From assembly GCA_014894395.1 (NCBI GenBank), contig JADBLO010000072.1:52674-116673 (forward strand): 64,000 nt of DNA, read 5' to 3'. Numbering within the stretch: position 1 is the stretch's first letter; the number at the start of each line of letters is the position of its first letter. Positions 29,852 to 51,310 of this stretch are shown here, piece after piece. The translations under genes and the position numbers were made by a program. Under the pieces are notes generated by a model. It saw only the letters and a program-made list of their open reading frames with translations. It was not told where the DNA came from and did not search any database. Source of the DNA: Thermoplasmata archaeon. Lineage in GTDB: Archaea > Thermoplasmatota > E2 > DHVEG-1.

Positions 29852-29945
29852 AGGAAAACCAGGGGAGAAAGAAAGATAAACTGTACACTGTTTTGGATTA
29901 TCATTTCATTTGTACAGCATTGCTTAGAAGGTGGAAGGTGGAGCA

Positions 29946-33497: not shown

Positions 33498-33542
33498 ATA
33501 TGCCTCCTCACTACACGTGTAAACGGATACTATTGAAAAAAC

Positions 33543-34787
33543 TTATCGTAAAAATTCTTTGTAAATATCAAGGGTTCGTCGAGTGACCGCATCCCAGCTG
33601 AATTCTTCTAAGACTCGTTGTCTCCCGTTTTTCCCCAGCTGGAGTCCTTTGTCCGGTAATTGAAGAACTTGTATGATCCCCCATGCGACGTCCTTAGGCT
33701 CAAAGGGGTTGATGTGGATGCCGCATTGTTTTTCTCCAGAAGGGATGATTTGTTCCCGCATCCCATTGGTTCCTCGTGCGCCAACAACCGTCGGTTTTGC
33801 CATGGACATTGCTTCGGTGCATACGATTCCAAATGGTTCATAAAGTGAGGGGAGTACGACTATGTCTGCTGCTGCGTAATGCCGGATTCTTTCTTCTTCA
33901 CTAACGAATTCTGTTCTGAAAATCACCCGGTCATGTATGCCTAAGCCATCGGCGGTCGATCGCAGTTCATCCTCCATATCTCCTATGCCGAGAATCAGTA
34001 ATTTCGTGTTCGGGAAATCCTTGAGTATCTGGGGCATTGCTCGAACAAGTCTGTCTGCTCCTTTTACGGTGACGAGGCGACCAATGAAAAACAATAATGT
34101 TTCGTGGTCTTGGACGCCGTATCTTCTCCTTTGAGCGAGGCGGTCTTCATTTGAAATCTTTGTCGGGTCGTATTTTGCAGGGTCGACGCCGTTCCAACAC
34201 GGTCGGATTTTATCTTGGGGAAATCCAAGTTTTAGGAGCTCGTCTGCCATCGCGTTGGAAACGGTGATGACGCAATCCGCGACTTGACCTCCTTCAAATT
34301 CAATGTCTTTTATGGTATGGGATCCTCGTCCTATGGATCGTCCAACTTCTGTAGAGTGTACATGGAACACTAATGGAATGTTCAATTCTTTTTTAGCCAC
34401 CATTCCTCCCATGATTCCGAGCCAGTCATGTGCGTCAATGATAGTAAATGACCGCCCATTCTTCCGAACGAGTGAGTTTACAAGCTGCGACGCAGACATG
34501 ATATTGTAGCTTAAGACGTCAGCAAAAAACTTGAAGTTCGGCCCCCACGAACGGAGTTCATGATCTGCGCAGAGGTAAAATGGTTTGCTGAGATCAAGTG
34601 TTTTCGGTCTGTACACCTCTACGCCATCGATCTGATCAGAGGTAGCAAGAGCATTATCCCTGTTAAGGGTAAAAACAGTGACTTCGTGTTCAAGTTCTAT
34701 TTGCTTTTTTGTAATCTCGGTGGCAAATGTACCAAGTCCACCGTAGATAACTGGGGGATACTCCCAGGAAAAATGCACAATCTTCAT
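33543..34787 (-). CDS. GT4 glycosyltransferase (probable glycogen synthase-like)
   Basis: SWEYPP...GGLG, AHDWL, HSTE, FIGRL..KG, PSLYEPFGIV..EAM. Confidence 0.88.
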   Translation of the reverse strand: MKIVHFSWEYPPVIYGGLGTFATEITKKQIELEHEVTVFTLNRDNALATSDQIDGVEVYRPKTLDLSKPFYLCADHELRSWGPNFKFFADVLSYNIMSASQLVNSLVRKNGRSFTIIDAHDWLGIMGGMVAKKELNIPLVFHVHSTEVGRSIGRGSHTIKDIEFEGGQVADCVITVSNAMADELLKLGFPQDKIRPCWNGVDPAKYDPTKISNEDRLAQRRRYGVQDHETLLFFIGRLVTVKGADRLVRAMPQILKDFPNTKLLILGIGDMEDELRSTADGLGIHDRVIFRTEFVSEEERIRHYAAADIVVLPSLYEPFGIVCTEAMSMAKPTVVGARGTNGMREQIIPSGEKQCGIHINPFEPKDVAWGIIQVLQLPDKGLQLGKNGRQRVLEEFSWDAVTRRTLDIYKEFLR

Positions 34788-34803
34788 GATGTGTTACGTC
34801 TCC

Positions 34804-35994
34804 TCACCGTGATTCAGCTTTTTCCTTCAAGTCTTGTAAGATGTTCATGTAGTTAATAAAACCATCATAGGGGATGTCATACGGACTGAAATATGCGTGG
34901 ACATTGCCGTCTTCAAAGCCTTTGGTTGAAATGTAGTAGAGGTGATCTGATGTTTGAAGTAATCGCCAGATGTACAGGAGATCGCTATCTCCTTTCCTTT
35001 TGAGTTTTCGTCCGATATCTTTTAGTTCATTGAAACAAGCGATCTGCATGTCGTTCCCAAGCCATGTCGAGACATTTCTGTCTTCGTCTGCCCAGGAGAT
35101 CGCCCAGGGGGAGTCGATGTCGCCGACCGCGTTGTACCGCTCGACTGCTTCACTCACGGTAGCAAAATCAAGGTTATCATGTTTCAGTACTTCACCAGGG
35201 AGGTGTTTGAGGAATTCAAAGATCCCTGTTTCTACCCATTGGTGCTCCCCGAAGGTTTCGTAATCCATGAAAAGGTTAATGACGTCGCCAAACGAGTTGG
35301 ACATCCAGTTCGCGTATTTATCCGCGGTAAGGGGGAACCCGGGCCAGTTGCGTGCAGAAAATCGGAACCCAACATCATCACTGAGTTTGTAGTTGCGCAA
35401 GAGGACTTTGAGGTTTGCGTTTACTGGTTTGTAGACGAAGTTTGGTGAACGCCATCCCAGGATTTTTTCCGCTCCTTCGGTGATAATGCCTTTATACCCG
35501 AGGTCTGCAATTTTTTGTGCGATCCTATTATCGTAGATTGCCTCGGTGTTTCGAAACACTTTTGGTTTGTAGTTGAAGATCCGTTTGATCATCTGCCGAT
35601 GCATTTTGACTTGATCCTCAAACTCATCAAGATCATCGTAGAGTCCAGAGAGAGAATGAAAATAGGTCTCCTCTATGAGGTCAACAGCACCGGTTTTGAA
35701 TAATTCCTTGAAACTATCAAGAAGTTCCGGGAGGTACTTCTCACAGTATTCAACGAACGTTCCGGTAAGACTATAGGATATTCGGAATTTCCCATCGTAT
35801 TTGCGAATCAAATCAAGGAATAGATTATTGGTAGGGAGATAACATTTCTTTGCCACTTTTTCAAAAATCTTTTGGTTAAGATGCTGATTAAAATAAGTGG
35901 AATGGAAATCTCTTGTGTTTCCAATATTAAATACCGAGAAATGATTTAATCTGAATGGTTGGTGTACTTCGAAGTAGAAACATATGGATGGCAT
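34804..35994 (-). CDS. GH57 alpha-amylase/4-alpha-glucanotransferase family
   Basis: YFEVHQP, CYLPTN, ETYFHSL, RNTE (nucleophile), LSDD, MDYETFGEHQ, SWAD, QTSDHLYY. Confidence 0.93.
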   Translation of the reverse strand: MPSICFYFEVHQPFRLNHFSVFNIGNTRDFHSTYFNQHLNQKIFEKVAKKCYLPTNNLFLDLIRKYDGKFRISYSLTGTFVEYCEKYLPELLDSFKELFKTGAVDLIEETYFHSLSGLYDDLDEFEDQVKMHRQMIKRIFNYKPKVFRNTEAIYDNRIAQKIADLGYKGIITEGAEKILGWRSPNFVYKPVNANLKVLLRNYKLSDDVGFRFSARNWPGFPLTADKYANWMSNSFGDVINLFMDYETFGEHQWVETGIFEFLKHLPGEVLKHDNLDFATVSEAVERYNAVGDIDSPWAISWADEDRNVSTWLGNDMQIACFNELKDIGRKLKRKGDSDLLYIWRLLQTSDHLYYISTKGFEDGNVHAYFSPYDIPYDGFINYMNILQDLKEKAESR

Positions 35995-35995
35995 A

Positions 35996-37105
35996 TTAGG
36001 CTAGGCCCCTGTAGACGTCAAGCGTCCGTTCTGCGACGCGGTCCCAGGTAAATAATTGTATCTCCCTTTTTGAACTTTGCCTCATGGCATCCCGCAAGGA
36101 ATCATACCGTAAAAGCGCGATAATTTTGTTTGCCATCTCATCGGTATCCCAGAAGTCGACCTTGAAGCAATTCTTCAGTACCTCCGAGACGCCAGCGCTT
36201 TTTGACACAATTGTTGGCGTTCCTGCAGAGATCGCTTCAAGAGCGGTGATACCAAACGGTTCGCTGACCGATGGCATGACGTAGATGCTTGAGATTTTAT
36301 AGATATGTTGGACTTCTTCCTCCGTCAGTTTTCCCGTAAAAATGACTTTATTTGATATCCCCATGTGAACAGCTTGTTCAATTAAGCGAGGAAGCAGATC
36401 TCCAGCTCCTGCAATGACAAAACGAGCATCTTCAAACTCTAACACCTTTTTTGCAGCTTTCAGGAAGAACTCCGGGCCTTTCTGTATCGTCAGTCTCCCC
36501 AAGAACAGGATAAGATTTCGTTTCTCCCCCTCCCCAATGGGATAGACTGCATTGTGGACCACGGTGATTTTATCCGGGTGTATACCGTATTTCTCAACAA
36601 TGACTCGTTTGGTGAACTCACTGACTGCGATGATACGGTCTGCTTTCTGCATGCCTTCTCGTTCGATATCGACGAACCATTGGTTTGGATAGATCCAACC
36701 CGATCGGTCATACTCAGTTGAGTGAATCGTTAGAACAAGAGGAATACCCATCTTTTCTTTCAGGGCTACCGCTGCTTTCATAGTGAGCCAGTCATGACAG
36801 TGTATCAAATCGTATTTCCCTTTGACCCTCTGAACTAACAAATCATTGTATCGATAGACCGCATCAAAGAATTTCCCGCCAAGTTCTTTATCATCGGGTC
36901 GGTCGTACGGATATACTTCGGTTTCTCCCACTTCAATGATATTAATATTCTTGTTATCACTCTTGACTTTTTGTCTGAGCTTCGGCATGTAGAAGTCTAT
37001 GTGAACGTTTTTATCGGCAAGTCCATGGGTCAACCCGTAACAGTGGGTACCTAAGCCGCCCACTTTAAATGGTGGGTATTCCCAGCCGATCATTGCGATT
37101 TTCAT
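35996..37105 (-). CDS. GT4 glycosyltransferase
   Basis: GWEYPP...GGLG, HCHDWLT, HSTEYDR, LGRLTIQKGP, PSVSEPFGI..LEA. Confidence 0.9.
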   Translation of the reverse strand: MKIAMIGWEYPPFKVGGLGTHCYGLTHGLADKNVHIDFYMPKLRQKVKSDNKNINIIEVGETEVYPYDRPDDKELGGKFFDAVYRYNDLLVQRVKGKYDLIHCHDWLTMKAAVALKEKMGIPLVLTIHSTEYDRSGWIYPNQWFVDIEREGMQKADRIIAVSEFTKRVIVEKYGIHPDKITVVHNAVYPIGEGEKRNLILFLGRLTIQKGPEFFLKAAKKVLEFEDARFVIAGAGDLLPRLIEQAVHMGISNKVIFTGKLTEEEVQHIYKISSIYVMPSVSEPFGITALEAISAGTPTIVSKSAGVSEVLKNCFKVDFWDTDEMANKIIALLRYDSLRDAMRQSSKREIQLFTWDRVAERTLDVYRGLA

Positions 37106-37762: not shown

Positions 37763-38575
37763 TTATCGATATTTATTGATTTCATTGCGAACCGATTCTG
37801 CTTTCTTGCGGGATTGTTCTGCGAAATCCTGTTGTTCACCAGCAAAGATGATTTCCCGTGAGGAGTTAATAAGGGCCATTTCCCGTTGTGCATTTGTTCC
37901 GTTTCTCACTGTTGTCTCGACATCACCACCTTGTTTACCAACACCGGGGATGAGAATAGGGATGTGTTCCCCAAGGATAGTACGAACGGTTTTGAGTTCC
38001 TCCGGGTACGTTGCACCTACGACCGCACCACAATTATTATTCGTATTCCATTCCCGAATCTTCTTGGCGACGATTTGGTATAATGGCGTTGATGAGACAG
38101 TGAGATCTTGAAAATCACCTGCAGAGGGGTTCGAAGTCCGACACAAGATAAAACTACATTTGTCTTTATAGTCTAAAAACGGGGTGATGCCATCCTTCCC
38201 TAGATAGGGATTTACCGTTACCGCATCCGCCTTGAGAGTATCAAAGAGGGCTTGTGCGTATTTCTGGGCGGTATTGCCGATGTCATTGCGTTTCCCATCA
38301 AGGACGACGACGATGTTGTTGGGGATGTAACGTATGGTTTTTTCTAATGCTTCGATGCCTTTCTTTCCAACGACTTCATAAAACGCCATGTTCAGTTTGT
38401 ATGCACACACCAGGTCCTTGGTCGCATCAATAATCGCTTTGTTGAAATCAAACAGCGGATTTTTACTTGTTTCCAAGAGGAATTTTGGAATTTTTCCAAC
38501 ATCTGTATCGAGTCCAACACAAAGCAGGCTGTTGTTCTGGCTAGTAACATCCAACAGTTTTTGTCTCCAGTTCAT
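37763..38575 (-). CDS. pyrF: Orotidine-5'-phosphate decarboxylase
   Basis: LCVGLD, AYKLNMAFYE, LDGKRNDIGNT, RTSNP, GAVVGAT, IPGVGKQGG, NSSR. Confidence 0.96.
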   Translation of the reverse strand: MNWRQKLLDVTSQNNSLLCVGLDTDVGKIPKFLLETSKNPLFDFNKAIIDATKDLVCAYKLNMAFYEVVGKKGIEALEKTIRYIPNNIVVVLDGKRNDIGNTAQKYAQALFDTLKADAVTVNPYLGKDGITPFLDYKDKCSFILCRTSNPSAGDFQDLTVSSTPLYQIVAKKIREWNTNNNCGAVVGATYPEELKTVRTILGEHIPILIPGVGKQGGDVETTVRNGTNAQREMALINSSREIIFAGEQQDFAEQSRKKAESVRNEINKYR

Positions 38576-38639: not shown

Positions 38640-39734
38640 GTGCAAAATACAATGCCTCATATGGAAATTATCTACGGAGTGTGTTCATGGGGTCTTGGCC
38701 ACGCGACACGATCATTGCCCGTGATTCGAAAACTTATCACTGAAAAAAATAAGCTTACCGTTATTTCAAATGGAAGAAGTTTAGAGTTACTCAAAAAGGA
38801 GCTTGGGGACGCTGCTGAGTACATTGATATCCCTGATTATCCGATGTTGGTGTCTGAGAACACCAGGCAGTTTCTTGCAAAAAGCATGGTGTACTGGCCG
38901 GTGTTCATTAAAAGAATTGAGGACGGGTTATCCCAGCTTCAGAAAATCCTTGATCAAAAAAAATATGATTGTATTGTTTCTGATGCCAGATATGATATGT
39001 ACAGTAAGAAGATCCCGTCGTTTTTTATCTCTCATCAGATGCGAATCATGAACCCTCTTCGAATTAAGATGTTTGAGCGTGCGATGGAGCGGTTCAATTT
39101 GTTTTTCTTCAAACGATATGTTAGCGTCATGGTACCTGATTACAAAGAAGACAACCTCTCCGGTGATTTGTCCCATAATCTAAAAAGAATCGATGAAGAC
39201 ATGATCCATTATGTCGGAGTGCTTTCTGATTTTACGAGACGCTCAATGATAAAGGATATTGATTATTTGATTTCGATTTCTGGTCCTGAACCACAACGAA
39301 GTATCCTTGAGGAAAAACTCGCATCACAGGTCAATGAGCTCGAAGGGAACGTGGTCATGACCTTAGGGAAAGCAGAGAAATACTCAATAGTGAAAAAGAA
39401 ACATCTGACGACGTATTCTTTTGTTACCAAGGAGCTACGGGAAGAGTTGTTGAATAAAGCAAAGCTGGTGGTATCACGCTCCGGATATTCAACGATCATG
39501 GACGTCGCAGTTGTCGGCACAAAAGCATTGTTCATCCCAACACCCGGTCAGATCGAACAAGAATATCTTTCAAAATATCATAACGAGTTAGGTACGTTTT
39601 ATTCTGTGTCGCAGGATGCGATTCATTTGAAATCTGATGTGAAGATTGCACAAGGGAAAACCGGATTGACGAGAGAATGCGATGTGCATAAAACCGTAGA
39701 GAATATTCTTCGTATTATCACAGATAAAGCATAA
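38640..39734 (+). CDS. GT-B glycosyltransferase, GT28/MurG-C-like (MJ1255-like)
   Basis: GLGHATRS, ISGPEPQR, VSRSGYSTIMD, IPTPGQIEQEYL. Confidence 0.85.
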   Translation: MQNTMPHMEIIYGVCSWGLGHATRSLPVIRKLITEKNKLTVISNGRSLELLKKELGDAAEYIDIPDYPMLVSENTRQFLAKSMVYWPVFIKRIEDGLSQLQKILDQKKYDCIVSDARYDMYSKKIPSFFISHQMRIMNPLRIKMFERAMERFNLFFFKRYVSVMVPDYKEDNLSGDLSHNLKRIDEDMIHYVGVLSDFTRRSMIKDIDYLISISGPEPQRSILEEKLASQVNELEGNVVMTLGKAEKYSIVKKKHLTTYSFVTKELREELLNKAKLVVSRSGYSTIMDVAVVGTKALFIPTPGQIEQEYLSKYHNELGTFYSVSQDAIHLKSDVKIAQGKTGLTRECDVHKTVENILRIITDKA

Positions 39735-41599
39735 TGTATACCATAACTGCTTTAAATAGAACGAATATATTACCTATGAGGAGAGACTTCCTACTTATGA
39801 GACTATGGGGGCTTCTGAAATCATGGTACTTCTGGTTGTTACTGATTACTGGTATTGCTATCGCGGTGCGGTCGATCCCAGCCTGGACGAACGCGGCATG
39901 GGGCGGTGACTTTGGGATTTACTACGGGTTGACCTCACGGTTCGTTGAAAATCAGCAAATCTTCAACGAGTACAACGGCTGGGGCGGGATGTATAACTAC
40001 TTCCCGGTGCTCTATATTTTCTCCGCGTTTGGTCATTGGATAACTGGGGTTAATCTCCTCTGGGTGATGCCGAAGATTGCCCCGATCTTTGGCGGACTGA
40101 CCGTGCTTATATTCTATTTTATTGTCTATGAGATGACGAAACGACGCGACCTTGCACTCTTATCATCGATGTTTCTTGCGGTCATCCCCTTCCATGTTTA
40201 CCAAACCAGCCATGCCGCACCATTAACCATGGGGCATTTCTTCATGATGCTCTCAACCTACCTGTTCCTCAAATTTATGAACGAGAAGAAATACCTGGTG
40301 CCTCTGTTGATCTCCACGGTGTTTCTTATTATGTCGCATCACCTCACCACCTATTTCTTCCTGATCACCATCTTCTTTATTGTTGTCATTAAAAGCCTTC
40401 GTATCGACCTTCGAAGTATGTACCGAGATGTCGCATACGTCACCGTTGCATCAGCACTCACCTTTAGCTACTGGATGTTTATCGCCACACCAGTGTTCAG
40501 CACCTTTATGAGCAATGGATTATCTGTTTCATCATATCTGGTGATTCTGCTTTTCTATGTCCTCTTATTTGGCCTTCTTTTTGGTATTGCTGCAATGAAA
40601 AAAAATAAATCAACATGGTTGGCCAGACTTGAAAAAATGTTTACATTTAACCCTGCTCATTCACGGAAACGCGCAATCATCTTTTTTACTGCCGGGTTTG
40701 TGTTTATTTTATCTGCCGAGATCGTGTTTTTATTTGTGAATTTCCCGGTCAGCGGCATGCGGATGAAGCCGCTCTCCATTGTATATTCAATTCCGATGCT
40801 GCTGTTTATAGGGTTTGGATGCATGGGCGTTGAGTATCTTGATCAGGTAAAGAACCGATGGTTTTTCCAAGCCTGGTTATGCGCGATCCTCGCATCCTTT
40901 ATTTATTCACTGGTGACCGTGAATACGACATTATTCCCTGATCGTCATGTCGAGTATCTGACGGTCCCCGCCTGTCTTTTTGCCGCTGTTGGCGTGCTCT
41001 ATTTCTTTAGAACCCGAGAACACACGGTATCATTGTCCTTCAAAAAACATCTCTCAAATCCTTCGATTCAGGTGTTATTCGGACTTGTCGTTTGTGGTCT
41101 GGTGTTTTCAAACGCAGTCGCAGTCTACCCCGTGTACACATCATTGGAGTGGATGGATGAAAGCATCCCGAATGAGACCGTCAACGCTATCGATTGGATC
41201 AAGGAGAATCTTGACAGAAATGATACTATGGTTGCAACAGATCTGCGGTTGTCCAAGATGATGTGGGCAGAAGGTATCAACGCGACATTTGAGGGGACAA
41301 ATGATACCTGGACTTGTGATACCTGGGTGGGATGTGTTGCTGATTTTGATGACGAGGAAAACCATCGTGTGGTGACTCATGTGTTGATCGATGATGTGAT
41401 GCGTGAAATGTCTGTCAACGTCCGCGTGCTCCAGAGCGTCTATATGACCAATGATTCGTATCTGAAGTTCAAACAAGAACCATTTGAACTCGTCTACCGG
41501 AACGCAACCATGAATCAGAACCAAGAAGAAGTACATTGGGCTGAGGTCTACAGGGTCAACTGGACGTTTATTGAACAGCATCTCATGGTGAAAAAATAA
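39734..41599 (+). CDS. Polytopic membrane protein with GT-C-like architecture; start uncertain
   Basis: About 12 TM segments, first loop GGDFGIYY...YFP, SHHLT, and a C-terminal soluble domain (AIDWIKEN...VATD). Confidence 0.7.
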   Translation: MYTITALNRTNILPMRRDFLLMRLWGLLKSWYFWLLLITGIAIAVRSIPAWTNAAWGGDFGIYYGLTSRFVENQQIFNEYNGWGGMYNYFPVLYIFSAFGHWITGVNLLWVMPKIAPIFGGLTVLIFYFIVYEMTKRRDLALLSSMFLAVIPFHVYQTSHAAPLTMGHFFMMLSTYLFLKFMNEKKYLVPLLISTVFLIMSHHLTTYFFLITIFFIVVIKSLRIDLRSMYRDVAYVTVASALTFSYWMFIATPVFSTFMSNGLSVSSYLVILLFYVLLFGLLFGIAAMKKNKSTWLARLEKMFTFNPAHSRKRAIIFFTAGFVFILSAEIVFLFVNFPVSGMRMKPLSIVYSIPMLLFIGFGCMGVEYLDQVKNRWFFQAWLCAILASFIYSLVTVNTTLFPDRHVEYLTVPACLFAAVGVLYFFRTREHTVSLSFKKHLSNPSIQVLFGLVVCGLVFSNAVAVYPVYTSLEWMDESIPNETVNAIDWIKENLDRNDTMVATDLRLSKMMWAEGINATFEGTNDTWTCDTWVGCVADFDDEENHRVVTHVLIDDVMREMSVNVRVLQSVYMTNDSYLKFKQEPFELVYRNATMNQNQEEVHWAEVYRVNWTFIEQHLMVKK

Positions 41600-41602
41600 G
41601 GA

Positions 41603-42775
41603 TCATCTGTTTTTATATTGTTGAAGGACTGTTTCGTACACCTGCTCATACTGAGAGCCAACGTACCTCATCGAGTGTTTTTCACTCAGCTGCAGGCTTT
41701 TCTTTTTCATGGTGTCCCTTAGTTTTTTATCAGAGAGGATAGTGATGATGTTGGATGCAAGCTGGTTGCTGTCCTTTGGCTCAAAGACCAAACCATTTCC
41801 TGAACTAGCGAGTTCAGGGACCGCTCCTTTGTTGACAACAACCGGTGGAACCCCTGAGGCAATTGCTTCGAGAGTGACGATGCTTTGGAGTTCTGACTCG
41901 GCAGGCATGACAAAAACGTCAGCGAGTGGGTAGATGTTCGGGTAATCAGCCCAGTCAAGGAAATCGATAAACGTGGTGTGATCATCCACCCCTAAATCCT
42001 GTGTTAATTTGATCATCTCTGGTTTCAGACCACCAGACCCGCAGAAAAGGAAATGCGTATCGACTTCTTTGAGGACAAACGGGATTGCTTTCACGAGCAC
42101 GTCAACGTTTTTTTCTTGGTTGATTCTGCCGGTGTAGAGGACAAGCGGTTTTTTAGGGAGATTGAACCGTTTCCGAAGATATTCACCCTTGTTGTTTGGT
42201 TTGAACAACTCGGTGTTCACTCCATTTGAGATGGGGGTTACCGGCGTTTTTAATCCTTTTTCTTGGTACATTGTTGCTCCGGTCTGAGTAGGGACCGTCG
42301 CCCAGTCAACAAGGTTGTAGAAGTAGATGAGATAGGACCAGGTGTACTTCACCATAGTTGGATACAAAGCGGATTTAAAGAACGGGGCGAGCACGTTTTC
42401 TGGCAGGATGTGGATCGAACCGACCAAGGGGATGTGTTTCTTTTTCGCCCAGATGATTGCGCATATGCTAATGGGATATGGGGAGCAGACGTTGATTATA
42501 TCTGGTTTGAATGTCTCAAGAATTTTTTTCACATAGAAGAACGGGAACGGGACGAAATGATATTTATTGTTCATGTAAAAGGGCAGGGGGAATGCGCGTG
42601 GTCGGTAGATTGTCGACCCGTCATCTTCTTCGATTGTATTTTTGAAGGAAAAGCTCGGGGCAATCACCTGGACGTCGTGTCCTTTGTTGATAAGCTCATG
42701 GACGATGCGATGTTGTGCGATCGCGCCACCGTCGATGATCGGGTAGTATGATTCTGTGGTGAATAGTATCTTCAT
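41603..42775 (-). CDS. GT4 glycosyltransferase (resembles monoglycosyl-diacylglycerol synthase type)
   Basis: MKILFTTESYYPIIDG, ISNGV, YTGRINQEKN, ESELQSIVTLEAIASG. Confidence 0.88.
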   Translation of the reverse strand: MKILFTTESYYPIIDGGAIAQHRIVHELINKGHDVQVIAPSFSFKNTIEEDDGSTIYRPRAFPLPFYMNNKYHFVPFPFFYVKKILETFKPDIINVCSPYPISICAIIWAKKKHIPLVGSIHILPENVLAPFFKSALYPTMVKYTWSYLIYFYNLVDWATVPTQTGATMYQEKGLKTPVTPISNGVNTELFKPNNKGEYLRKRFNLPKKPLVLYTGRINQEKNVDVLVKAIPFVLKEVDTHFLFCGSGGLKPEMIKLTQDLGVDDHTTFIDFLDWADYPNIYPLADVFVMPAESELQSIVTLEAIASGVPPVVVNKGAVPELASSGNGLVFEPKDSNQLASNIITILSDKKLRDTMKKKSLQLSEKHSMRYVGSQYEQVYETVLQQYKNR

Positions 42776-42843
42776 GAAAACCGAATTCCTCACTGCTGTA
42801 TAACCAGTGATTGATACATAATATTTACCAAAAACCGGGTTGA

Positions 42844-43794
42844 TTATTTGAGGATGTAGGGGCTCAGTGATGAATACAGAGAGCGAGGTGACGCGAACAC
42901 GTCGGTGGCGAAGTACTGGTACCATCCGCAGCTTCGGTTGCATTCTTTCATTGCTGTTCGTGCTTCTTTTGCTTCTGGTGTTTTAAGGAATTTCATAAAT
43001 GAGCCTTCCGTGAAGTTATAGCAATGTTTTCCTACGGTCCGACAGGGGTAGAACAGGCCGCCGTCCGAGTCAATAATAACCGAGGAAGTGGAGCAGCCGT
43101 GGGGTGTGTTGATGTTATCTAAAAATCCCTTTGGTGTGGTAATCGTATTCAGGTATTTCTTTTTCAATCGCAGTATTTCTGCTCGGAAGTCGTTCGGGTC
43201 AGGGTAGAAATCATCGGTTCCGTCTAAATGACAGGCAGGCATAACGACGGTGCGTGCGTTGACCTCGTAGACGCGTTTGACTTTTTCTTCAAGGACCGGA
43301 AGGGTTTCTTTTGTGACGACGATTTGGATGCAGATTTCTGGTCCGTAGCTTTGGAACTCTTCAAGCCTGTCAAAGAATTTGAGGTTGTCATGTCCCTCAT
43401 CGATGCTGATGTGGAGGTAGTCGATGTGTTTGCCGTACTCTTTCATGGGTCGTTTATGAAGGAGGTGCCCGTTGGTGGTGAAGAAGAGGTAGAATGGTTT
43501 TTGGTGGGCGTACTGGAGGATTTCACCGAGGTCCTTTCTGACGAGCGGGTCTCCTCCCTCCAAACTTAAGACGACAATACTGGAATTCGCAATGTTATCG
43601 ATGACGGTGAAGACATCTTCTTTTACGAGATCAGGTGTTTTTTCCCTCCAGACGTTGCAGAAGCTGCACTTCAGGCTGCAGACATGGGTGACTTTAAAGG
43701 AGGCGTAGAAGGGGTAGATACATTCTCGTGCCACGTAATTTGCTGCTGCGTAGCGCATGGTTTGTAGGTACTTGCTGATGGGGAGTTTTTTCAT
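42844..43794 (-). CDS. Radical SAM enzyme with C-terminal twitch/SPASM-like domain
   Basis: CSLKCSFC (CX3CX2C), EGGDPLVR, TTNG, ISID; C-terminal C...DG...PC...C..SC. Confidence 0.92.
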   Translation of the reverse strand: MKKLPISKYLQTMRYAAANYVARECIYPFYASFKVTHVCSLKCSFCNVWREKTPDLVKEDVFTVIDNIANSSIVVLSLEGGDPLVRKDLGEILQYAHQKPFYLFFTTNGHLLHKRPMKEYGKHIDYLHISIDEGHDNLKFFDRLEEFQSYGPEICIQIVVTKETLPVLEEKVKRVYEVNARTVVMPACHLDGTDDFYPDPNDFRAEILRLKKKYLNTITTPKGFLDNINTPHGCSTSSVIIDSDGGLFYPCRTVGKHCYNFTEGSFMKFLKTPEAKEARTAMKECNRSCGWYQYFATDVFASPRSLYSSLSPYILK

Positions 43795-43903
43795 TGAGTC
43801 ACAATCTTTAGGGAGTAATCAATCAGAGAACATAAGGTTTTTTATAATACCAAGTTTGCGTCAACCACAAGAAACTTATAGCGTCTTGAAAATAACCTTT
43901 TTG

Positions 43904-44992
43904 TTGACGAACGAGAAAAAGAAACTCAATAAAACAAAAATTTCTATTTTCGTAAGTATTGCATTGAGTCTCTCAATTATTGTATTGATCTTGTATTTTA
44001 CGATCGATGTGCAAACGATCCAATATCTGTCACAAGTCTCGTTCCGAGCTGAGTTCTTTTTGTTCTTTACTGCCGCGGTGCTGTTGAATGTTTTGTATTG
44101 GTTTATCTGGGGTGCACGGCTAAAAGTTCTGAGTACAGCGATTGACCCGAAGGTTCATGTGAGTCTATGGGAAGCAACCAAAATTGTTATCGCGAATCAG
44201 TTCATGGCAGGTATTACTCCATCGGTTGCCGGTGGCGAGCCGGTCCGTATTTATTTATTGAATAAAGATGGTCTGAGTACTGGTGGTGCAACGGCTGCTG
44301 TTCTTGGTGAACGGTTGATTGATGCGATTTTCATTTTAGTGCTTGTTCCTTTTGGTTTTTTTGTTTTTAAAGATCGGATTGATGTGAAGCTGATCAGCTA
44401 TGGGCTTTCCATAGGAGTTATTGTGTTTGTCATCGGTCTTGTGTTGTTTGCATTGGCATTGAAATACCCAAAGAAAACCAAGGTGTTGTTGATTCGTATT
44501 AGTGAGCGGGTTAGCCGGTTGTCGAAGAAGAAAGAGAAAAGCAAGCACGTGGTGGATCGAATCGGTCGTGAGGTTGATAATTTTCATAACAGCATGGTGT
44601 TCTTTTTAACCGGGGGAAAAAAGTCATTTCTTGGCGCAGGTGGTTTAACAGTACTGATGTGGTCAACTGGTTTTTTAATCCCGTCAATGATCCTTTTAGC
44701 TCTTGGTCTTCCTCCGTTCTGGGTTGAGTCGTATGCCGCGCAGGCGCTTCTACTGATTATTGTAATGCTTCCGACGACGCCCGGAAGTTCAGGGGTCACC
44801 GAGCTTGGGATGGCTGCGTTGTATGGTGTGTTGCTTGGTGCTTCGCATCAGTATTTGCTCGGTGTGTTTGTCTTATTATTCCGGTTTATCACCTATCATA
44901 TAAATATGATCTGCGGAGCGATTTTTCAGTACCGGATTTTTAAATCACTCACCTCGTTCTCATTGGAAACCATGAGTAAAAAAGAAGGGTAA
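43904..44992 (+). CDS. Lysylphosphatidylglycerol-synthase TM domain / UPF0104 flippase-like protein; start uncertain
   Basis: ITPSVAGGEPVRIY, ERLID, PTTPGSSGVTE, LFRFITY; multi-TM. Confidence 0.85.
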   Translation: MTNEKKKLNKTKISIFVSIALSLSIIVLILYFTIDVQTIQYLSQVSFRAEFFLFFTAAVLLNVLYWFIWGARLKVLSTAIDPKVHVSLWEATKIVIANQFMAGITPSVAGGEPVRIYLLNKDGLSTGGATAAVLGERLIDAIFILVLVPFGFFVFKDRIDVKLISYGLSIGVIVFVIGLVLFALALKYPKKTKVLLIRISERVSRLSKKKEKSKHVVDRIGREVDNFHNSMVFFLTGGKKSFLGAGGLTVLMWSTGFLIPSMILLALGLPPFWVESYAAQALLLIIVMLPTTPGSSGVTELGMAALYGVLLGASHQYLLGVFVLLFRFITYHINMICGAIFQYRIFKSLTSFSLETMSKKEG

Positions 44993-46353: not shown

Positions 46354-47159
46354 ATGAAAAAAATCCTCTGATTGGGAAAGGTTTAGCGATTGCAGTTATC
46401 TTTTTGTTCGTTGGTGTGGCTTTCGCACCAAGCATCAACTTCAACGTTGTGAAAGCATCCAATGACAACGACCTTGTGGAAGTGACTACCCAAGCATGTG
46501 GTATCAAAGGATTTGGTAATCATACCGTGAAACTCACTAGGCAACAATATCAGAGTCTGGAGCAGTATCTTGTTGATTTCAGGGAACGATTGAATCAGAC
46601 AACAACCAGGGAGGAAGCTGTTCCTATCTTCAAGGAAGCTGTTGTGGAGTTGAACAAGTATGGGTTGTTGCCGAAGGGAATGAGTGTTGAACAGACTCAG
46701 AAATTAGTTTCAGGAGAACTTTTCCCAACGAAAATATTGAATTTGTTGAAAAAAATACTATTAATTCAAAATAAGAATATTGATATACCAAATGACGTGT
46801 TAAATTTATTATGTTTTTTTTATGCACACACAATAGATGCATATGAGATAAATATTTGGGTCCTTATCGCTAGTTTATTCGGATATCTACGGTATAAGTA
46901 TGATTTAAAGATTTTTAGTTATTTAAATGAATTGTTTTATGAATATGGTCAATTCAAACCACTTAAGTTCATGAATGAGATTGATATTGGGGTAGGCACT
47001 GCATACTCTTACTTTACAATGGGTCTTCTCGGGGTTCAAAATGGAAGCCATGATTTTCATAATGCTTATGGTTTTTCTGGAATAAAAGTAACCCTCGAAT
47101 ACGGCCAAATAGAGGCAGTCTATTTTGGTTTTGCATTAAAAGTCACAAAATTTACGTAA
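46354..47159 (+). CDS. Secreted hypothetical protein; frame broken in an A7 run after the start codon
   Basis: GGAGG RBS, then ATG AAA AAA ATC CTC TGA. One more A gives MKKNPLIGKGLAIAVIFLFVGVAFAPS, fused to track ORF 46404-47159. Confidence 0.7.
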
Positions 47160-47207
47160 AGATGAAAACAGAAAGTATGAAATTGTCGATACAGATATAG
47201 AAATCGA

Positions 47208-47570
47208 ATGCAAAAACAATGTGCAATCATTGGAATTCTTTTTCTACTTATCACGATTAGTTTGAGTGGATGCAACCAATCAAACAATGAGAGAGAGAAA
47301 TTTATTGGAACCTGGAAAACAGAACTGAAACAAAACCCCATGGGTGGAAATAATTATACGGAAACCAAGATCTTCTACGCAAATGGCTCCTACGTCACCA
47401 CGAACATGGGACTTGGTCGTATCCCTGGCACCTGGCATCTTGCTAATGGAAATTTGATCATTGATACATATTTTCCTGGGACATATCGGTATTCTTTTTC
47501 CCAGAACAACAGCATCCTTACGCTCACGTCTGTCGCAGGAGGATTTATTGAAAATCTTACAAAACAATAA
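47208..47570 (+). CDS. Small archaeal lipoprotein (lipocalin-like beta barrel)
   Basis: Signal peptide with lipobox LSGC, FIGTWK, and a GTW second motif. Confidence 0.8.
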   Translation: MQKQCAIIGILFLLITISLSGCNQSNNEREKFIGTWKTELKQNPMGGNNYTETKIFYANGSYVTTNMGLGRIPGTWHLANGNLIIDTYFPGTYRYSFSQNNSILTLTSVAGGFIENLTKQ

Positions 47571-47578
47571 AAAATTAA

Positions 47579-49294
47579 TTATTTATGAGTAAAGATGCCG
47601 ACAAGGTCTTTCTTCTGTTTTTCAAGCCGTACAAATCCAACGCGTTCAAACTGCACGATCTCTCCAACAGTTATACCCGAAACCGCTTTCTCTGCGTATC
47701 CTTGTAGCTCATGGAGACTATCAGGGTTGAAGGTCTCGCCTTTGAAAATAAGCCCGGGAACAATAATCTTGAGTGGGATATGATCGTCTGTGGTCCATTG
47801 AATCTTAGCGGTCTCTGGAATGAGTTCGTCTCCAGCATAGGTTCCCGTAAGTGTGTCACCGGTTTTTGTGATCCTCACATTGTATAATCCTTTCAACCGG
47901 AAGACGTCTCCAGCCTTCATCTTCTGCGCATCTTCTTTTGGTACGAAAAACGTTGAACCCGTATGAATGGTTCTCTCGCCCATCGTCGCATCAGGGTGCA
48001 ACGACAGCTTCGCGGTTTTTTTCGGCGCACCATCAACCGACAGTTGTACAGGATTTGGAACAAAGTAGTATCGTTTCACCCTCGAGTCAAGGAACTTCCG
48101 ATTCACGGATTCAACCAAGCTGAAATCAACAACGGATTCTACCTTTGAAAAACCTTGTTGAAGCACAAATTGTTTAATCGCCTCAGGAACAATCCCTCGC
48201 CGCTTCAACCCACGCAAGGTCGGTAATCGGACGTCATCGAATCCGGTCACCAAACCTTGTTCGATGAGCGGTTTTATCTTTCGTTTGGAAACCGGCATCC
48301 CCTCAATCGAAAGCCTTGAAAACTCCATCAGATGAGGAGCCCGCAGATTCAACAAACTCAGAATACGGAAATACACTGGGTCCCGCAACTCGTACTCCTT
48401 GGTCCGGAACGGATGCGTCACCCCACTGATACTATCCTCCACAGCACCTGCGAAATCATACGTGGGCCACACATGGTATTTATCACCGGTCAACGGATGC
48501 TCCGCCTCAATGACACGGAACAAGGTGGGATCACGCATCGCGGTGTTATCACTCCCCATCTCACCATGCAGACGCAGAATCCCGCTCACCTCCGGGGAAG
48601 CAAGCATGTCCTTCCACAGATCAAGTGCTGCCTCACCGGTGCGGTCCTCACGACAACTACAGGTCTTTGCATTAAACCTGCCTTCTTTGATCGCCTCTGA
48701 TGTACATTTGCACAGATACGCATCCCCTTGTTTGATTAACTGCTCTGCAAGTTTGTAATGGGTTTCTAAATGATCAGAGGTATGGTACTCGCTGTCCCAT
48801 TCGACTCCAAGCCAGCGCAAATCCTCTTTCTGCGCATCATAAAACTCAAGGTGTGCGTTCTCCGGGTTCGTATCATCAAAACGTAAAATGAACTTCCCGT
48901 CATAGATCCGCGCGTACTCATAATCGATGATCGCTGCCTTCGCATGACCAATATGCAGATATCCGTTTGGCTCGGGGGGAAAACGAGTAACAACCTTCCC
49001 TTTCTCAGCAAATGGCAATGGTGGAAGTGAAAAATCCCGCGCTTTCTTCTCTCGTTGTAATAGCTCAGGAGCAAGTGACGTAAGCTCCGTGAGCTGATTA
49101 TGTGCTGATATGCTATTTACTTGGGTAACCACCTTTGCGACAACCGGGATAATCTCTGCTGGTGTCACCCCATCTTTCTTCAGCGCAGCGATAACCTTCC
49201 CTGCAACCGCTTTTTCGTTTGCTTTTCCGTTGAAGAAAATCGCGTTCTGCAATGCGAACTTCCGTGCCTCTGTCTGTATCTTCTGAGTTGACAT
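47579..49294 (-). CDS. gltX: Glutamyl-tRNA synthetase
   Basis: TRFPPEPNGYLHIGH, RFDDTNP, MRDP, WPTYDF, GFDDVRLPTL, QFERVGF. Confidence 0.97.
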   Translation of the reverse strand: MSTQKIQTEARKFALQNAIFFNGKANEKAVAGKVIAALKKDGVTPAEIIPVVAKVVTQVNSISAHNQLTELTSLAPELLQREKKARDFSLPPLPFAEKGKVVTRFPPEPNGYLHIGHAKAAIIDYEYARIYDGKFILRFDDTNPENAHLEFYDAQKEDLRWLGVEWDSEYHTSDHLETHYKLAEQLIKQGDAYLCKCTSEAIKEGRFNAKTCSCREDRTGEAALDLWKDMLASPEVSGILRLHGEMGSDNTAMRDPTLFRVIEAEHPLTGDKYHVWPTYDFAGAVEDSISGVTHPFRTKEYELRDPVYFRILSLLNLRAPHLMEFSRLSIEGMPVSKRKIKPLIEQGLVTGFDDVRLPTLRGLKRRGIVPEAIKQFVLQQGFSKVESVVDFSLVESVNRKFLDSRVKRYYFVPNPVQLSVDGAPKKTAKLSLHPDATMGERTIHTGSTFFVPKEDAQKMKAGDVFRLKGLYNVRITKTGDTLTGTYAGDELIPETAKIQWTTDDHIPLKIIVPGLIFKGETFNPDSLHELQGYAEKAVSGITVGEIVQFERVGFVRLEKQKKDLVGIFTHK

Positions 49295-49296
49295 GA

Positions 49297-50280
49297 TTAC
49301 TTTTCTCGTTGAATGATATAATCGATGAGTTGATGCAAGAGTTCTTTTGCATCGGATGGCTTTAGTACCGTTATTGCGTCTTTTGCTTGGTTGACATAGT
49401 GTAATGCACGCTGCTGTGCATATTCTACAGATCCAAGTTCCCTAAAGAGATCGTACACTTTCGTGACATCATGTTCTGATGCGCTGCGGTTTCCAAAAAT
49501 ATCATCCAGCAGTCTCTTTTCCTTGCCGGTCGCATGAGACAGGCAATGCACTGCGATCAGAGTCTTTTTCCCGTTTCTGATATCATTGCCGATATCCTTC
49601 CCTAGTGTTGTTGCAGTACTGCTCATATCAAGGTAATCATCCCAGATCTGAAACGCTAAACCCAGTGCCATCCCGTAGGTCTGTAACGCAGCAACCTCTT
49701 GTGGGTTTCCACCACCGATCAACCCGCCACCTTTGCTGGATAGTTCAAACAGCGCACCTGTTTTCTTACTGATCATATCCAGATACTCCTGCTCAGGAAC
49801 TGTTTTTCGTTGTTCAAACTCTATGTCTAGTTGTTGGCCTTCGCAAATAGCGATGACACAGTCAATAAAATCCTGCTGCAATTGCTTAAACATAGAAAAA
49901 TCAACGGAGGTCCCCAGGATTGCTTCAAATGATTTCGCAAACAATAAATCACCGGAGAGAATAGCAGCAGGTTCACCGAACTTGACGTGTACAGTTGGAA
50001 GGTTCCGTCGAAGCATGGAATGATCCATGATGTCATCATGAACCAACGTGAAATTATGCATCAACTCAAGGCCAGCGGCAAACGGGAGAGCTTTCTGGGC
50101 ATCACCAGAGACGCTTTCACATGCAACCGTAGTAAGAAACGGTCTGATTCGTTTCCCACCAGCAAAAGGGAGATGACGTGCTGCCTCGTACAGTGTCGCA
50201 GGTTTTTTTATCTGCAGGTACTGCTGCCAATACGTATTGAACATCGCAGTTCGTTTCATCAGTTCATTCTGTAAGTCCAT
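49297..50280 (-). CDS. idsA: Geranylgeranyl diphosphate synthase
   Basis: GGKRIRP, LVHDDIMD (FARM), GQQLD, KKTG, FQIWDDYLD (SARM), GKKT. Confidence 0.93.
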   Translation of the reverse strand: MDLQNELMKRTAMFNTYWQQYLQIKKPATLYEAARHLPFAGGKRIRPFLTTVACESVSGDAQKALPFAAGLELMHNFTLVHDDIMDHSMLRRNLPTVHVKFGEPAAILSGDLLFAKSFEAILGTSVDFSMFKQLQQDFIDCVIAICEGQQLDIEFEQRKTVPEQEYLDMISKKTGALFELSSKGGGLIGGGNPQEVAALQTYGMALGLAFQIWDDYLDMSSTATTLGKDIGNDIRNGKKTLIAVHCLSHATGKEKRLLDDIFGNRSASEHDVTKVYDLFRELGSVEYAQQRALHYVNQAKDAITVLKPSDAKELLHQLIDYIIQREK

Positions 50281-51310
50281 ATTTCACTTCCGCAGTCGAT
50301 AGTTTTTCAACAGAATCAGCGCCAACAAGAAACATAGCGATCCGCAGCTCCCGAGTGATTACGTCGAGTTCCAGTTCCGTGGATTTTTTATCCTTCAGCG
50401 CTGGTTTCAGCAGGGCATGCGCCATCCCGGCTGCGTTCGCACCAAGAACTAAAGCTTTTGCGACATCAAGTCCATGACGGATCCCACCGGTTGCAATAAT
50501 CGGCAGTTCCCAATTGGTTGCTTTTCCGACCTCAAGGATACATGTTGGTGTCGGGATTCCCCAGTCCCAGAACGTCTGGCCAGCACGCATGTTGCGAGTA
50601 TCACCTTTGATTTTCGCACGATAATATTCCACCGCGGAAAACGAAGTGCCCCCAGCGCCTCCAACATCAATCCCACAAATCTTTGTTTTCCTTAATTGAT
50701 GTGCAACCTTACCGCAGATACCTGCGCCGCTCTCCTTAATAATGATCGGACGACCGAATTCCCGTGAAAGCATATCAATCGTGGCAATGCAACCTTTCGC
50801 GTGCGCTTCACCTTCAGGTTGGATAGCCTCCTGTAAAAAGTTCAAACAAACCGCGAGCGCGTCCGCATCAATCATCTCTACTATCTTTTCTGCGTTCTCA
50901 AGAATCTGTTTTTTGTCCCAAAGGACAATCTGAGACGCACCGATATTTGCGATCTTCAACGGAATATCATATTCTTTGATGACGCTGTAGGTTTCCGCTA
51001 GTTTCTGATTTTCCAACGCAGCACGCTGTGAGCCCACACCCATACCGACTTGGAATTCTGCTGCAGCAGCAGCAAGATGCTCATTGATCTTCTTGCCCTC
51101 AGAATATCCGCCCGTCATACCAGAGATAATCAGTGGTGCATTCAGTTTCTTCCCGAACAACTGGATCGATAAATCAATCTCGTTTTCATTAATTTCCGGT
51201 AGCGCGTTATGAACAAGATGGACGTCGTCCCAGAAGTTATGATGAGCAGAAACATTTTCTTTTAACGAGATTTGCACGTGTTCACGCTTCCTTTCCTCGG
51301 TTTGGTTCAT
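50264..51310 (-). CDS. fni: Type 2 isopentenyl-diphosphate isomerase
   Basis: RKREH, ISGMTGG, GVGSQR, NFLQE..QPEG, IKESG, GAGGTS, GGIRHG. Confidence 0.96.
   Translation of the reverse strand: MNQTEERKREHVQISLKENVSAHHNFWDDVHLVHNALPEINENEIDLSIQLFGKKLNAPLIISGMTGGYSEGKKINEHLAAAAAEFQVGMGVGSQRAALENQKLAETYSVIKEYDIPLKIANIGASQIVLWDKKQILENAEKIVEMIDADALAVCLNFLQEAIQPEGEAHAKGCIATIDMLSREFGRPIIIKESGAGICGKVAHQLRKTKICGIDVGGAGGTSFSAVEYYRAKIKGDTRNMRAGQTFWDWGIPTPTCILEVGKATNWELPIIATGGIRHGLDVAKALVLGANAAGMAHALLKPALKDKKSTELELDVITRELRIAMFLVGADSVEKLSTAEVKYGLTE

Follow-up and report, generated by a model that had tools for sequence, protein, structure and literature searches.

The DNA analysed here, referred to as the window, is a 64,000-nt stretch from an uncultured archaeon of the Thermoplasmatota (Thermoplasmata archaeon, assembly GCA_014894395.1, contig JADBLO010000072.1, forward-strand positions 52,674 to 116,673), and the locus under study, window positions 38640-44992, holds five adjacent long open reading frames (ORFs) that probably serve a glycan or glycolipid pathway and include a gene for a radical S-adenosylmethionine (SAM) enzyme. 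A preliminary description of this DNA, made from its letters alone, had placed five contiguous genes of such a pathway at 38640-44992; the ORF listing returns all five at exactly these coordinates and without interruption, and profile scans of the window proteins against Pfam and NCBIfam, with scores read against the curated cut-offs, bear out four of the assignments, the fifth protein being GT-C-like by its predicted fold. On the forward strand lie a GT28-like glycosyltransferase (GT) of the GT-B type (38640-39734) and a GT-C-like membrane protein (39797-41599); on the reverse strand follow a GT4 (41603-42775, within an ORF that runs to 42943) and the radical SAM enzyme of 316 aa (42844-43794); and beyond a divergent intergenic region (43795-43885) a flippase-like protein of the LPG_synthase_TM family (43886-44992, within an ORF that opens at 43757) is again encoded on the forward strand.

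Each of the five ORFs has more than 100 homologues as well as orthologues across the clade loci, and they are thus real genes rather than chance ORFs. Their nearest relatives all come from metagenome-assembled genomes of uncultured Thermoplasmatota and Thermoplasmatales, including SM1-50 and SG8-52-3; orthologues from this clade account for 69 of 80 GTDB-species loci, most of 80 metagenome loci belong to the same clade, and near-identical DNA was seen in permafrost and sediment metagenomes. Contigs of close relatives (85-99% identity) in sediment and wetland metatranscriptomes span all five genes at low depth, which suggests that relatives of these genes are expressed in situ, DNA carry-over being possible; operon boundaries are not resolvable from these contigs. 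The GT28-like gene and its neighbour, the GT-C-like gene, run in the same direction, and so do the radical SAM and GT4 genes, with a 68-bp gap; the five-gene set as a whole is transcribed in three separate directions. A Kyte-Doolittle scan found zero hydrophobic segments in the GT28-like enzyme, the GT4 and the radical SAM enzyme, consistent with a cytoplasmic location of all three.

A distinct family of twitch-type radical SAM enzymes

The radical SAM enzyme belongs to the superfamily by its match to PF04055 (Radical_SAM, 59 bits, cut-off 29.5). Across an alignment that spans 35-90% identity, all three cysteines of the SAM-cluster motif C39-x3-C43-x2-C46 (CxxxCxxC) are invariant, as are E79, G80, G81 and P83 of the SAM-binding motif EGGDP, the remaining position, 82, being D or E. 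Two further consensus stretches of the family, SIDEGHxN and CGWYQY, have only some invariant residues, in the former S130, I131, D132, H135 and N137, with E133 at least 90% conserved. Towards the C-terminus, the arrangement C234-x11-G-x4-C251 ... C285-x3-C289 contributes four cysteines, each at least 90% conserved.

Structurally, the AlphaFold (AF2) model is confident (predicted local distance difference test, pLDDT, 88.5) and consists of alternating beta and alpha elements, with C234 and C251 on a predicted beta-hairpin (E238-241, E246-248) that is followed by a helix. SPASM and twitch domains share a CX9-15GX4C hairpin, with seven cysteines in a full SPASM domain and about four in a twitch domain. 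Having only four conserved cysteines, the modelled enzyme has a twitch-like architecture with a predicted single auxiliary cluster rather than a full SPASM domain, as the preliminary description had read it. The Pfam SPASM model has no match in the window enzyme and a weak match in a homologue of 38% identity. In a Foldseek search of the PDB the top match was BlsE (E 1.3e-12, TMq 0.62), a cytosylglucuronate decarboxylase and thus a sugar-modifying enzyme of the twitch type, followed by SuiB, CteB, anSME, viperin, PqqE, SkfB, DesII, MoaA, EpeE and AbmM; BtrN is absent from the 50 best structural matches. The partial TIM-barrel core and the C-terminal beta-hairpin/helix cysteine domain are held in common with BlsE, BtrN, NeoN and DesII, but sequence identity to these enzymes is only 13-19%, and their substrates are soluble nucleotide sugars or aminoglycoside sugars of antibiotic biosynthesis. 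The BlsE model TIGR04466 is not among the 25 NCBIfam matches listed for the window enzyme.

At the sequence level, matches to solved structures are confined to the N-terminal core. The same holds for the best NCBIfam match, the uncharacterised PTO1314 family TIGR03961 (72.5 vs 306 bits), and the models for NirJ, AhbD, PqqE, MoaA and HpnH reach 35-53 bits, far below cut-off. Several specific identities were considered and rejected: HpnH (TIGR03470, 35.8 vs 225 bits, N-terminal core only); HpnJ (TIGR03471, cut-off 577.6), the window protein having no PF02310 match and only 316 aa, and the model not being among the 25 best of 47 NCBIfam matches; and the PTO1314 family, the heme enzymes NirJ/AhbD, PqqE and MoaA, for which scores are far below cut-off and coverage is limited to the N-terminal core. 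A maturase of ribosomally synthesized and post-translationally modified peptides (RiPPs) was likewise rejected, with no PqqD or RiPP recognition element (RRE) domain in the protein and no evident precursor-peptide gene adjacent to it, no dedicated small-ORF search having been made. The full-length nearest outgroups, which are PTO1314-like, score 76-179 bits on TIGR03961 and are below its cut-off themselves, and an exhaustive HMMER search of 1.84 billion representatives gave about 30 clusters at 50% identity with E <1e-30. Judged by these scores, the enzyme belongs to a small, distinct family outside the characterised ones; a place in a characterised but unrelated family such as those of heme synthesis, which would have undercut the preliminary description, did not emerge, all NCBIfam equivalogs scoring far below cut-off.

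Glycosyltransferases and membrane proteins of the locus

The GT28-like protein (364 aa, with an alternative start at ATG 38661) scores above threshold with PF13528 (Glyco_trans_1_3, 39.9 bits, cut-off 25) and PF04101 (Glyco_tran_28_C, 35.8 bits, cut-off 22), which places it among GT28 / MurG-Alg13/14-Agl24-like GT-B enzymes. Its match to TIGR00661, the MJ1255 (MJ1255/VC2487) subfamily, is weak (72.9 bits, below the 195.9 cut-off) and does not make it a member, and a literature search on MJ1255 gave nothing usable. In MurG, Alg14 and Agl24 the GGxGGH loop bears an essential histidine and probably binds the diphosphate of the lipid (PMC8993221). The window protein carries SWGLGH21 at this position, and the homologue at locus L088 carries NWGLGH, which suggests that the acceptor is a phosphate-bearing lipid.

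The second soluble glycosyltransferase matches PF00534 (Glycos_transf_1, 115.7 bits) and PF13439 (Glyco_transf_4, 83.9 bits) and is a GT4, a retaining GT-B enzyme. Its start is most likely ATG 42775, giving 390 aa, with a Shine-Dalgarno-like GTGAGGAA within the 68-bp spacer that follows the radical SAM gene. The best NCBIfam matches, all below cut-off, are N-acetylglucosaminyl-phosphatidylglycerol (GlcNAc-PG) synthase, BshA, Mgs/monoglucosyl-diacylglycerol synthase and lipoteichoic acid-anchor GTs, with the GlcNAc-PG synthase equivalog NF053787 at 106.9 vs 480 bits, and the nearest PDB sequences are BshA, PimB' and MshA.

The flippase-like protein is a member of both LPG_synthase_TM (PF03706, 142.8 bits, cut-off 33.4) and TIGR00374 (153 bits, cut-off 43.2) and has about eight hydrophobic segments by Kyte-Doolittle analysis. 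Its second-best NCBIfam match, the glucosaminyl-phosphatidylglycerol (GlcN-PG) flippase NF053789, falls short of membership at 73.3 vs 320 bits. Translation probably starts at TTG 43886 (about 368 aa), 36 nt downstream of a TATA-like, AT-rich TTTTTTATAATA read at 43838-43849. With this start, the divergent radical SAM and flippase-like genes do not overlap and share a 91-bp intergenic region, in which TTTTTTATAATA could be a promoter element serving both.

The GT-C-like membrane protein most likely starts at ATG 39797, which is preceded by GAGGAG and yields 600 aa, the length of most homologues; its ORF opens at 39734, in a TAATG overlap with the stop codon of the GT28-like gene. Sequence and profile searches gave no family match in Pfam or NCBIfam and no PDB sequence match. 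Kyte-Doolittle analysis gives it about 10 hydrophobic segments, after which a hydrophilic domain of about 155 aa makes up the C-terminus. The AF2 model is of low confidence (pLDDT 57); its top 10 Foldseek matches are all GT-C enzymes, at TM-scores of about 0.45, and include human and yeast STT3 (best E 2e-8), Archaeoglobus fulgidus AglB, ALG12, AftA and ArnT. Weak Pfam PMT/STT3 matches appear in 7 of 58 homologue scans (two alignments that share only the window protein), hhalign aligns transmembrane segments TM1-TM5 with a bacterial PMT_2 protein at a probability of 28.6%, and the NCBI name of an 86% identical homologue is 'glycosyltransferase family 39'. In a 31-sequence alignment reaching down to 37% identity, Asp38 is invariant within WGxDxGIY, in the first outer loop after TM1. 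GT-C enzymes have 8-13 transmembrane helices, a soluble extracytoplasmic domain and, in the first extracytoplasmic loop, a catalytic acidic residue, to which Asp38 would correspond in position. A GT-C fold is likely, on a low-confidence model and weak profiles; of the GT-C-like protein with an extracytoplasmic domain put forward in the preliminary description, the hydrophilic C-terminal domain and the GT-C resemblance in Foldseek were observed. We rejected the more specific identity STT3/AglB. The stretch WMDES after the last transmembrane segment occurs only in the window's subclade, and its W452, M453 and D454 are unconserved across the 31 sequences; no WWDYG-type motif is conserved in the family, so that the protein is not an oligosaccharyltransferase, and PF02516 has no match in the window protein.

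Gene order within the clade and a swappable glycosyltransferase slot

In 69 GTDB-species clade loci the order of the flippase-like gene, the oppositely directed radical SAM gene, a GT slot, the GT-C-like gene and the GT28-like gene is nearly invariant. This order is part of a collinear block of about 20 kb, in which it is flanked on one side by genes for EF-1beta, a helix-turn-helix regulator, glutamyl-tRNA synthetase (GluRS), geranylgeranyl diphosphate synthase (GGPPS), type-2 isopentenyl diphosphate isomerase (IDI2) and isopentenyl phosphate kinase (IPK), and on the other by PyrF and glycogen genes. Because the collinearity takes in housekeeping genes, synteny within the clade reflects lineage inheritance and is not evidence of linkage.

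Within the block, the radical SAM gene is the most conserved of the five (median identity 80%, present in all clade loci), followed by the GT28-like gene (70%, in 49 of 52), the flippase-like gene (58%, in at least 49 of 58, where it is divergent from the radical SAM gene) and the GT-C-like gene (45%, in 50 of 52), and these four genes are the conserved core. The slot between the radical SAM and GT-C-like genes, surveyed in 57 clade loci, is far more variable. An orthologous, co-directional GT4 occupies it in 33 loci; in 17 the GT4 is another one, 21-30% identical and encoded on the other strand, with an adjoining in-frame GT2 domain in one case; the others hold a GT2 (two loci), an unidentified gene (one), a 6.7-kb insertion (one) or nothing (three). 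The GT4 is thus a swappable cassette and the least conserved of the five genes, and the stress that the preliminary description had laid on a radical SAM/GT4 pair was misplaced.

The 6.7-kb insertion (L058:8952-15690) takes the place that corresponds to window positions 41603-42843. It holds a pair of radical SAM/SPASM genes, of which one encodes a PqqD-like domain at the N-terminus, together with an unidentified 381-aa ORF, a Peptidase_C25 gene and a GT4, and looks like a RiPP-type cassette placed in the glycosylation locus. We considered its PqqD-fused radical SAM/SPASM pair as a counterpart of the conserved radical SAM gene and rejected it as an insertion.

Glycosylation genes beside the radical SAM gene in distant lineages

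Evidence on linkage comes from outside the clade. The radical SAM orthologues from 173 loci, clustered at about 62% identity, form the window cluster and 20 others, which are 35-56% identical to the window enzyme. In about 10 of these 20 non-clade lineages a GT lies within 4.5 kb of the radical SAM gene, and in five clusters a GT28-type GT stands beside it, belonging in four to the window's own GT28-like family. At L088/L089 the order is radical SAM, radical SAM, GT28-like, radical SAM and HpnA-like epimerase, with the L088 GT28-like protein 36% identical to that of the window over 350 aa (E 4e-77). At L115 it is radical SAM, deacetylase, GT2, GT28-like and CehA-like; at L152 the GT28-like gene overlaps the radical SAM gene; and at L168 a GT4, a 209-aa ORF and the radical SAM gene are accompanied by a GT28-like gene on the opposite strand. 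The fifth cluster is represented by L090, where a GT28 of the MGDG_synth type overlaps the radical SAM gene. The operons at L090:1-10011 and L091:926-10021 further hold six radical SAM genes, some with SPASM domains and one of them encoding a protein 35-39% identical to the window enzyme, along with a GT2 and an unidentified protein of about 500 aa, and look like clusters for multi-step radical tailoring of a lipid or glycolipid. The L088 contig further carries a DarT plus Macro-domain pair (L088:3141-4845), a DarTG-like toxin-antitoxin arrangement situated some kb upstream of its radical SAM/GT28-like genes.

Bacterial relatives sit in a longer array that runs HpnI-like GT2, LPG_synthase_TM, GT2, radical SAM, Polysacc_deac_1, GT2, radical SAM and CehA/McbA-type metallohydrolase, and for which we found no described function. 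It is complete at L078, L084 (675-12466), L085, L095 and L096, and L094 covers it from its beginning as far as the deacetylase. The copies at L097, L098, L105 and L108 are partial or more divergent and yielded no flippase-like gene, with partner proteins only 27-52% identical in L097, L098 and L108. Where the contig extends far enough, a divergent PMT_2-TPR GT-C and an alkaline-phosphatase-superfamily gene adjoin the cluster. On a Latescibacterota contig there are three tandem GT2/radical SAM pairs, of which relatives retain one. The bacterial and archaeal LPG_synthase_TM proteins have no BLASTP similarity and only the Pfam family in common, and the 525-aa CehA-like protein that ends the bacterial clusters was compared with the archaeal membrane protein and found to be unrelated.

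Every core partner type therefore recurs with the radical SAM gene among otherwise different neighbours, and inherited gene order cannot explain this; the comparison supports a functional tie between the radical SAM enzyme and glycosylation genes. Co-occurrence with GTs in other genomes had been set beforehand as a test of the association, and it came out positive: distant orthologues stand beside GT28-like, GT2 and GT4 genes, and LPG-synthase-TM, deacetylase and PMT_2 GT-C genes adjoin the radical SAM gene in unrelated archaea and bacteria.

In lineages where the gene is solitary, its neighbours include genes for an M20 peptidase, a biotin ligase, a MutL-like ATPase, OsmC, a GxGYxYP hydrolase and a Pyr_redox protein, and its partners could lie elsewhere in the genome. 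In one group of Thermoplasmata, the radical SAM gene (51-56% identity) is found directly downstream of a gene for a putative glycoside hydrolase of the GxGYxYP family, of about 1000 aa (L072:4876-7935, also L073, L075 and L076), a neighbour that is not a GT but again relates to carbohydrates.

A proposed pathway and its alternatives

Functionally, we propose, at about an even chance, that the locus encodes a pathway for the assembly and export of a lipid-linked glycoconjugate, with a membrane glycolipid or a lipoglycan as the most likely product; the substrate, reactions, order of steps and topology are our reading of the genes present, their families and folds and their associations across lineages. 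On the cytoplasmic face, the MurG/GT28-like enzyme would glycosylate a phosphate-bearing isoprenoid lipid acceptor, and the swappable second GT, here the GT4, would add a lineage-specific sugar. The soluble twitch-type radical SAM enzyme would then abstract a hydrogen atom from the lipid-anchored sugar and remodel it, the LPG-synthase-TM protein would, by analogy with its family, move the lipid-linked product to the outer leaflet, and the GT-C-like protein, if its fold is read correctly, would extend or transfer the glycan outside the cell from a polyprenyl-phosphate sugar donor. In favour of a joint lipid-directed pathway we count the operon-like gene arrangement, the isoprenoid precursor genes (IPK, IDI2 and GGPPS) 4 kb away, and the best NCBIfam matches of the GT4 and the flippase-like protein, which are lipid-headgroup enzymes and are taken here as a likeness in working, not as membership.

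With respect to what the radical SAM enzyme does, our single best guess, drawn from analogy and rather doubtful in itself, is a carbocycle-forming ring contraction that would give a cyclitol-type head group, as has been proposed for Cds and HpnJ. Epimerisation, and oxidation or another sugar chemistry, are each only slightly less likely, and a substrate that is not a sugar is a serious possibility, if somewhat short of an even one. The C5 epimerisation to an L-sugar such as L-gulose that had been suggested in the preliminary description is conceivable but found no specific support.

Several observations weigh against the proposed pathway. In about half of the distant radical SAM lineages, among them Delongbacteria, Zixibacteria, archaea labelled Methanomassiliicoccales and several other Thermoplasmata, no GT is recognisable next to the gene. 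The collinear block of about 20 kb in the clade includes housekeeping genes, three clade loci have no GT of any kind between the radical SAM and GT-C-like genes, and three have no flippase-like gene. The GT-C assignment combines a low-confidence model with weak profile matches, and a polyprenyl-phosphate sugar synthase gene (GT2 of the DPMS type) is not in the window's cluster. Enzymes with SPASM or twitch domains, moreover, also act on peptides and proteins.

In an Agl-like N-glycosylation pathway, an alternative that we consider improbable, the GT28-like enzyme and the GT4 would together make a dolichyl (pyro)phosphate-linked oligosaccharide, one of its sugars would be modified by the radical SAM enzyme, and the GT-C-like protein would hand a sugar or glycan to a protein on the outer face. 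The G-x-G-H loop of the GT28-like enzyme, which stands at the essential GGxGGH position of Agl24, Alg14 and MurG (PMC8993221), would suit such a pathway, as would STT3 and AglB being the best structural matches of the membrane protein, and loci for surface glycans typically have a variable GT cassette. However, no aglB/STT3 gene was found in the 64-kb window, the membrane protein has neither a conserved WWDYG motif nor a Pfam STT3 match, and the best matches of the GT4 are lipid-headgroup GTs. The LPG-synthase-TM family, too, is known for flipping glycerophospholipid derivatives, as in MprF, and not dolichol-linked glycans. The Gpg/Hex system, with its putative flippase, provides another case (PMC12713373).

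The breadth of SPASM/twitch chemistry bears on a second alternative, to which we give similarly little credence: that the radical SAM enzyme modifies something other than a sugar, either an isoprenoid or lipid core (in the manner of HpnH, Tes or Grs) or a protein (an anSME-like maturation of a neighbouring enzyme), and that it shares just regulation or ancestry with the GT genes. In sequence it stands nearest to an uncharacterised group, the PTO1314-like proteins, and its HpnH matches are weak; the protein- and peptide-acting anSME, SuiB, CteB and SkfB are among its top structural matches; the alkaline-phosphatase-superfamily 'Metalloenzyme' and CehA-type metallohydrolase genes of the bacterial clusters are possible maturation targets; and the half of distant lineages that have no GT neighbour would fit, as would the proximity of IPK, IDI2 and GGPPS. 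On the other hand, the alkaline-phosphatase-superfamily gene is absent from the archaeal cluster, and the absence of an RRE/PqqD domain and of an evident precursor-peptide gene, with the limit given above, speaks against peptide maturation. The top structural match, BlsE, modifies sugars, with DesII and AbmM also listed, and independent lineages repeatedly have tight, often overlapping pairs of a GT and a radical SAM gene, the three tandem GT2/radical SAM pairs included.

That the five genes are merely two or three independent units kept together by inherited clade gene order, as the reach of the collinear block far beyond them, the exchangeable GT4, the occasional absence of the flippase-like gene or a GT and the three transcription directions might suggest, is very unlikely given that GT28-like, LPG_synthase_TM and GT-C genes recur by 40-54% identical radical SAM genes in unrelated genomes where the other neighbours are different.

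Comparison with known systems

Glycolipid and glycan clusters, and the tailoring of head groups by radical SAM enzymes, are kinds of system already known. For the proposed lipid-linked glycoconjugate pathway, Cds and HpnJ are the two precedents in which a radical SAM enzyme is proposed to contract the ring of a hexose linked to a lipid (PMC13459092). Calditol synthase Cds (Saci_1489 of Sulfolobus) is, compared by description only, the closest functional precedent that we can put forward for such tailoring in archaeal lipids, being an archaeal radical SAM enzyme needed to turn a hexose linked to a glycerol-ether lipid into a carbocyclic head group (PMC13459092). The two differ in distribution, in that the window family is found in Thermoplasmatota of sediment and permafrost and in several bacterial phyla. 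Cds homologues, by contrast, are said to have been found by Zeng et al. in 2018 in Crenarchaeota, Korarchaeota and Marsarchaeota from acidic sites.

The HpnI/HpnK/HpnJ system, which makes bacteriohopanetetrol cyclitol ether, resembles the proposed pathway in its logic, in which a GT acts on a lipid, a deacetylase may take part and a radical SAM enzyme remodels the lipid-linked sugar, and the bacterial relatives of the window enzyme indeed stand in arrays of GT2 (best match HpnI), Polysacc_deac_1 and radical SAM genes, with an HpnA-like epimerase at one locus. HpnJ itself is different, at about 470 aa and with a B12-binding domain, whereas the window enzyme has 316 aa, no B12 domain and a predicted twitch-type auxiliary cluster. 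Furthermore, the archaeal host is without hopanoids, the archaeal locus is without a deacetylase, and all Hpn NCBIfam scores are far below cut-off.

With GpgSDF/HexSDF, which synthesise GlcN-PG, the locus shares a cytoplasmic GT acting on a membrane phospholipid and an LPG-synthase-TM-type putative flippase (PMC12713373), and the best NCBIfam match of the GT4 and the second-best of the flippase-like protein belong to this system. The scores (106.9 vs 480 and 73.3 vs 320) set the two apart, as do the missing deacetylase in the archaeal locus and the lack, in Gpg/Hex, of a radical SAM enzyme, a GT28-like GT and the GT-C-like protein. In mycobacteria, phosphatidylinositol mannosides, lipomannan and lipoarabinomannan are made by cytoplasmic PimA/PimB' GT4s, flipping, and extension by PimE-type GT-C enzymes from polyprenyl-phosphate sugars. 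The window locus would follow the same three-stage logic, and PimB' is among the nearest solved relatives of its GT4, but the mycobacterial pathway has no radical SAM enzyme and uses other lipids and other GT-C families, and the two are not orthologous.

A literature search for this gene combination gave nothing usable, and a non-B12, twitch-type radical SAM family that recurs with MJ1255-type GT28, LPG-synthase-TM and GT-C genes appears to be undescribed in the searchable literature. A bolder view, which we hold with little confidence, is that this family is a third independent route, beside Cds and the B12-dependent HpnJ, to the radical remodelling of a membrane-lipid-linked sugar; its product would be, for example, a cyclitol-type or epimerised head group, and its partners an MJ1255-type GT28 and an LPG-synthase-TM flippase. 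Were ring contraction or epimerisation to hold, the enzyme would be a mechanistically different, non-B12, twitch-type addition to the lipid-head-group radical SAM enzymes Cds and HpnJ, and, were the third route to hold, abundant sediment Thermoplasmatota and several bacterial phyla would make an unassigned polar lipid of potential use as a biomarker.

To our knowledge, no biosynthetic genes have been assigned to the polar lipids or surface glycans of this uncultured sediment and permafrost clade. The four-gene core with its highly conserved radical SAM gene offers an expressible target that could help to trace orphan intact polar lipids of sediments to the organisms that make them, and the occurrence of the family in GT/flippase/deacetylase clusters of Bacteroidota-like, Latescibacterota and other bacteria may point to an undescribed, widespread tailoring of lipid-linked sugars.

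Other genes in the window

The isoprenoid-precursor genes form an operon-like set on the reverse strand (49297-52089), 4 kb away from the glycosylation genes, with which they stay collinear throughout the clade: a probable isopentenyl phosphate kinase of the AA_kinase family (51307-52089), a probable type-2 isomerase of the FMN_dh type (50264-51310) and a polyprenyl (geranylgeranyl diphosphate) synthase (49297-50280), with GluRS (47579-49294) next to the set. Between this set and the five-gene locus, the region 46404-47570 (+) contains a 251-aa ORF that is absent from most syntenic clade loci; a neighbouring 120-aa ORF begins with a lipoprotein-like signal (…LSGC). Neither the 251-aa ORF nor a 692-aa ORF at 61882-63960 (-) has a Pfam match.

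On the other side, the gene for orotidine 5'-monophosphate decarboxylase, PyrF (37763-38575), separates the five-gene locus from a glycogen/alpha-glucan cluster (29931-37105) that comprises a phosphorylase-like protein, an amylo-alpha-1,6-glucosidase (GDE_N/GDE_C), two GT4/GT5 starch-synthase-like GTs and a GH57 protein. Further away, a Mur-ligase-family protein (Mur_ligase_M and Mur_ligase_C) is encoded at 17212-18576 (-); the host archaeon is presumably wall-less or without murein, and instead of serving the cell wall the protein may be a ligase of the folylpolyglutamate/CofE type.

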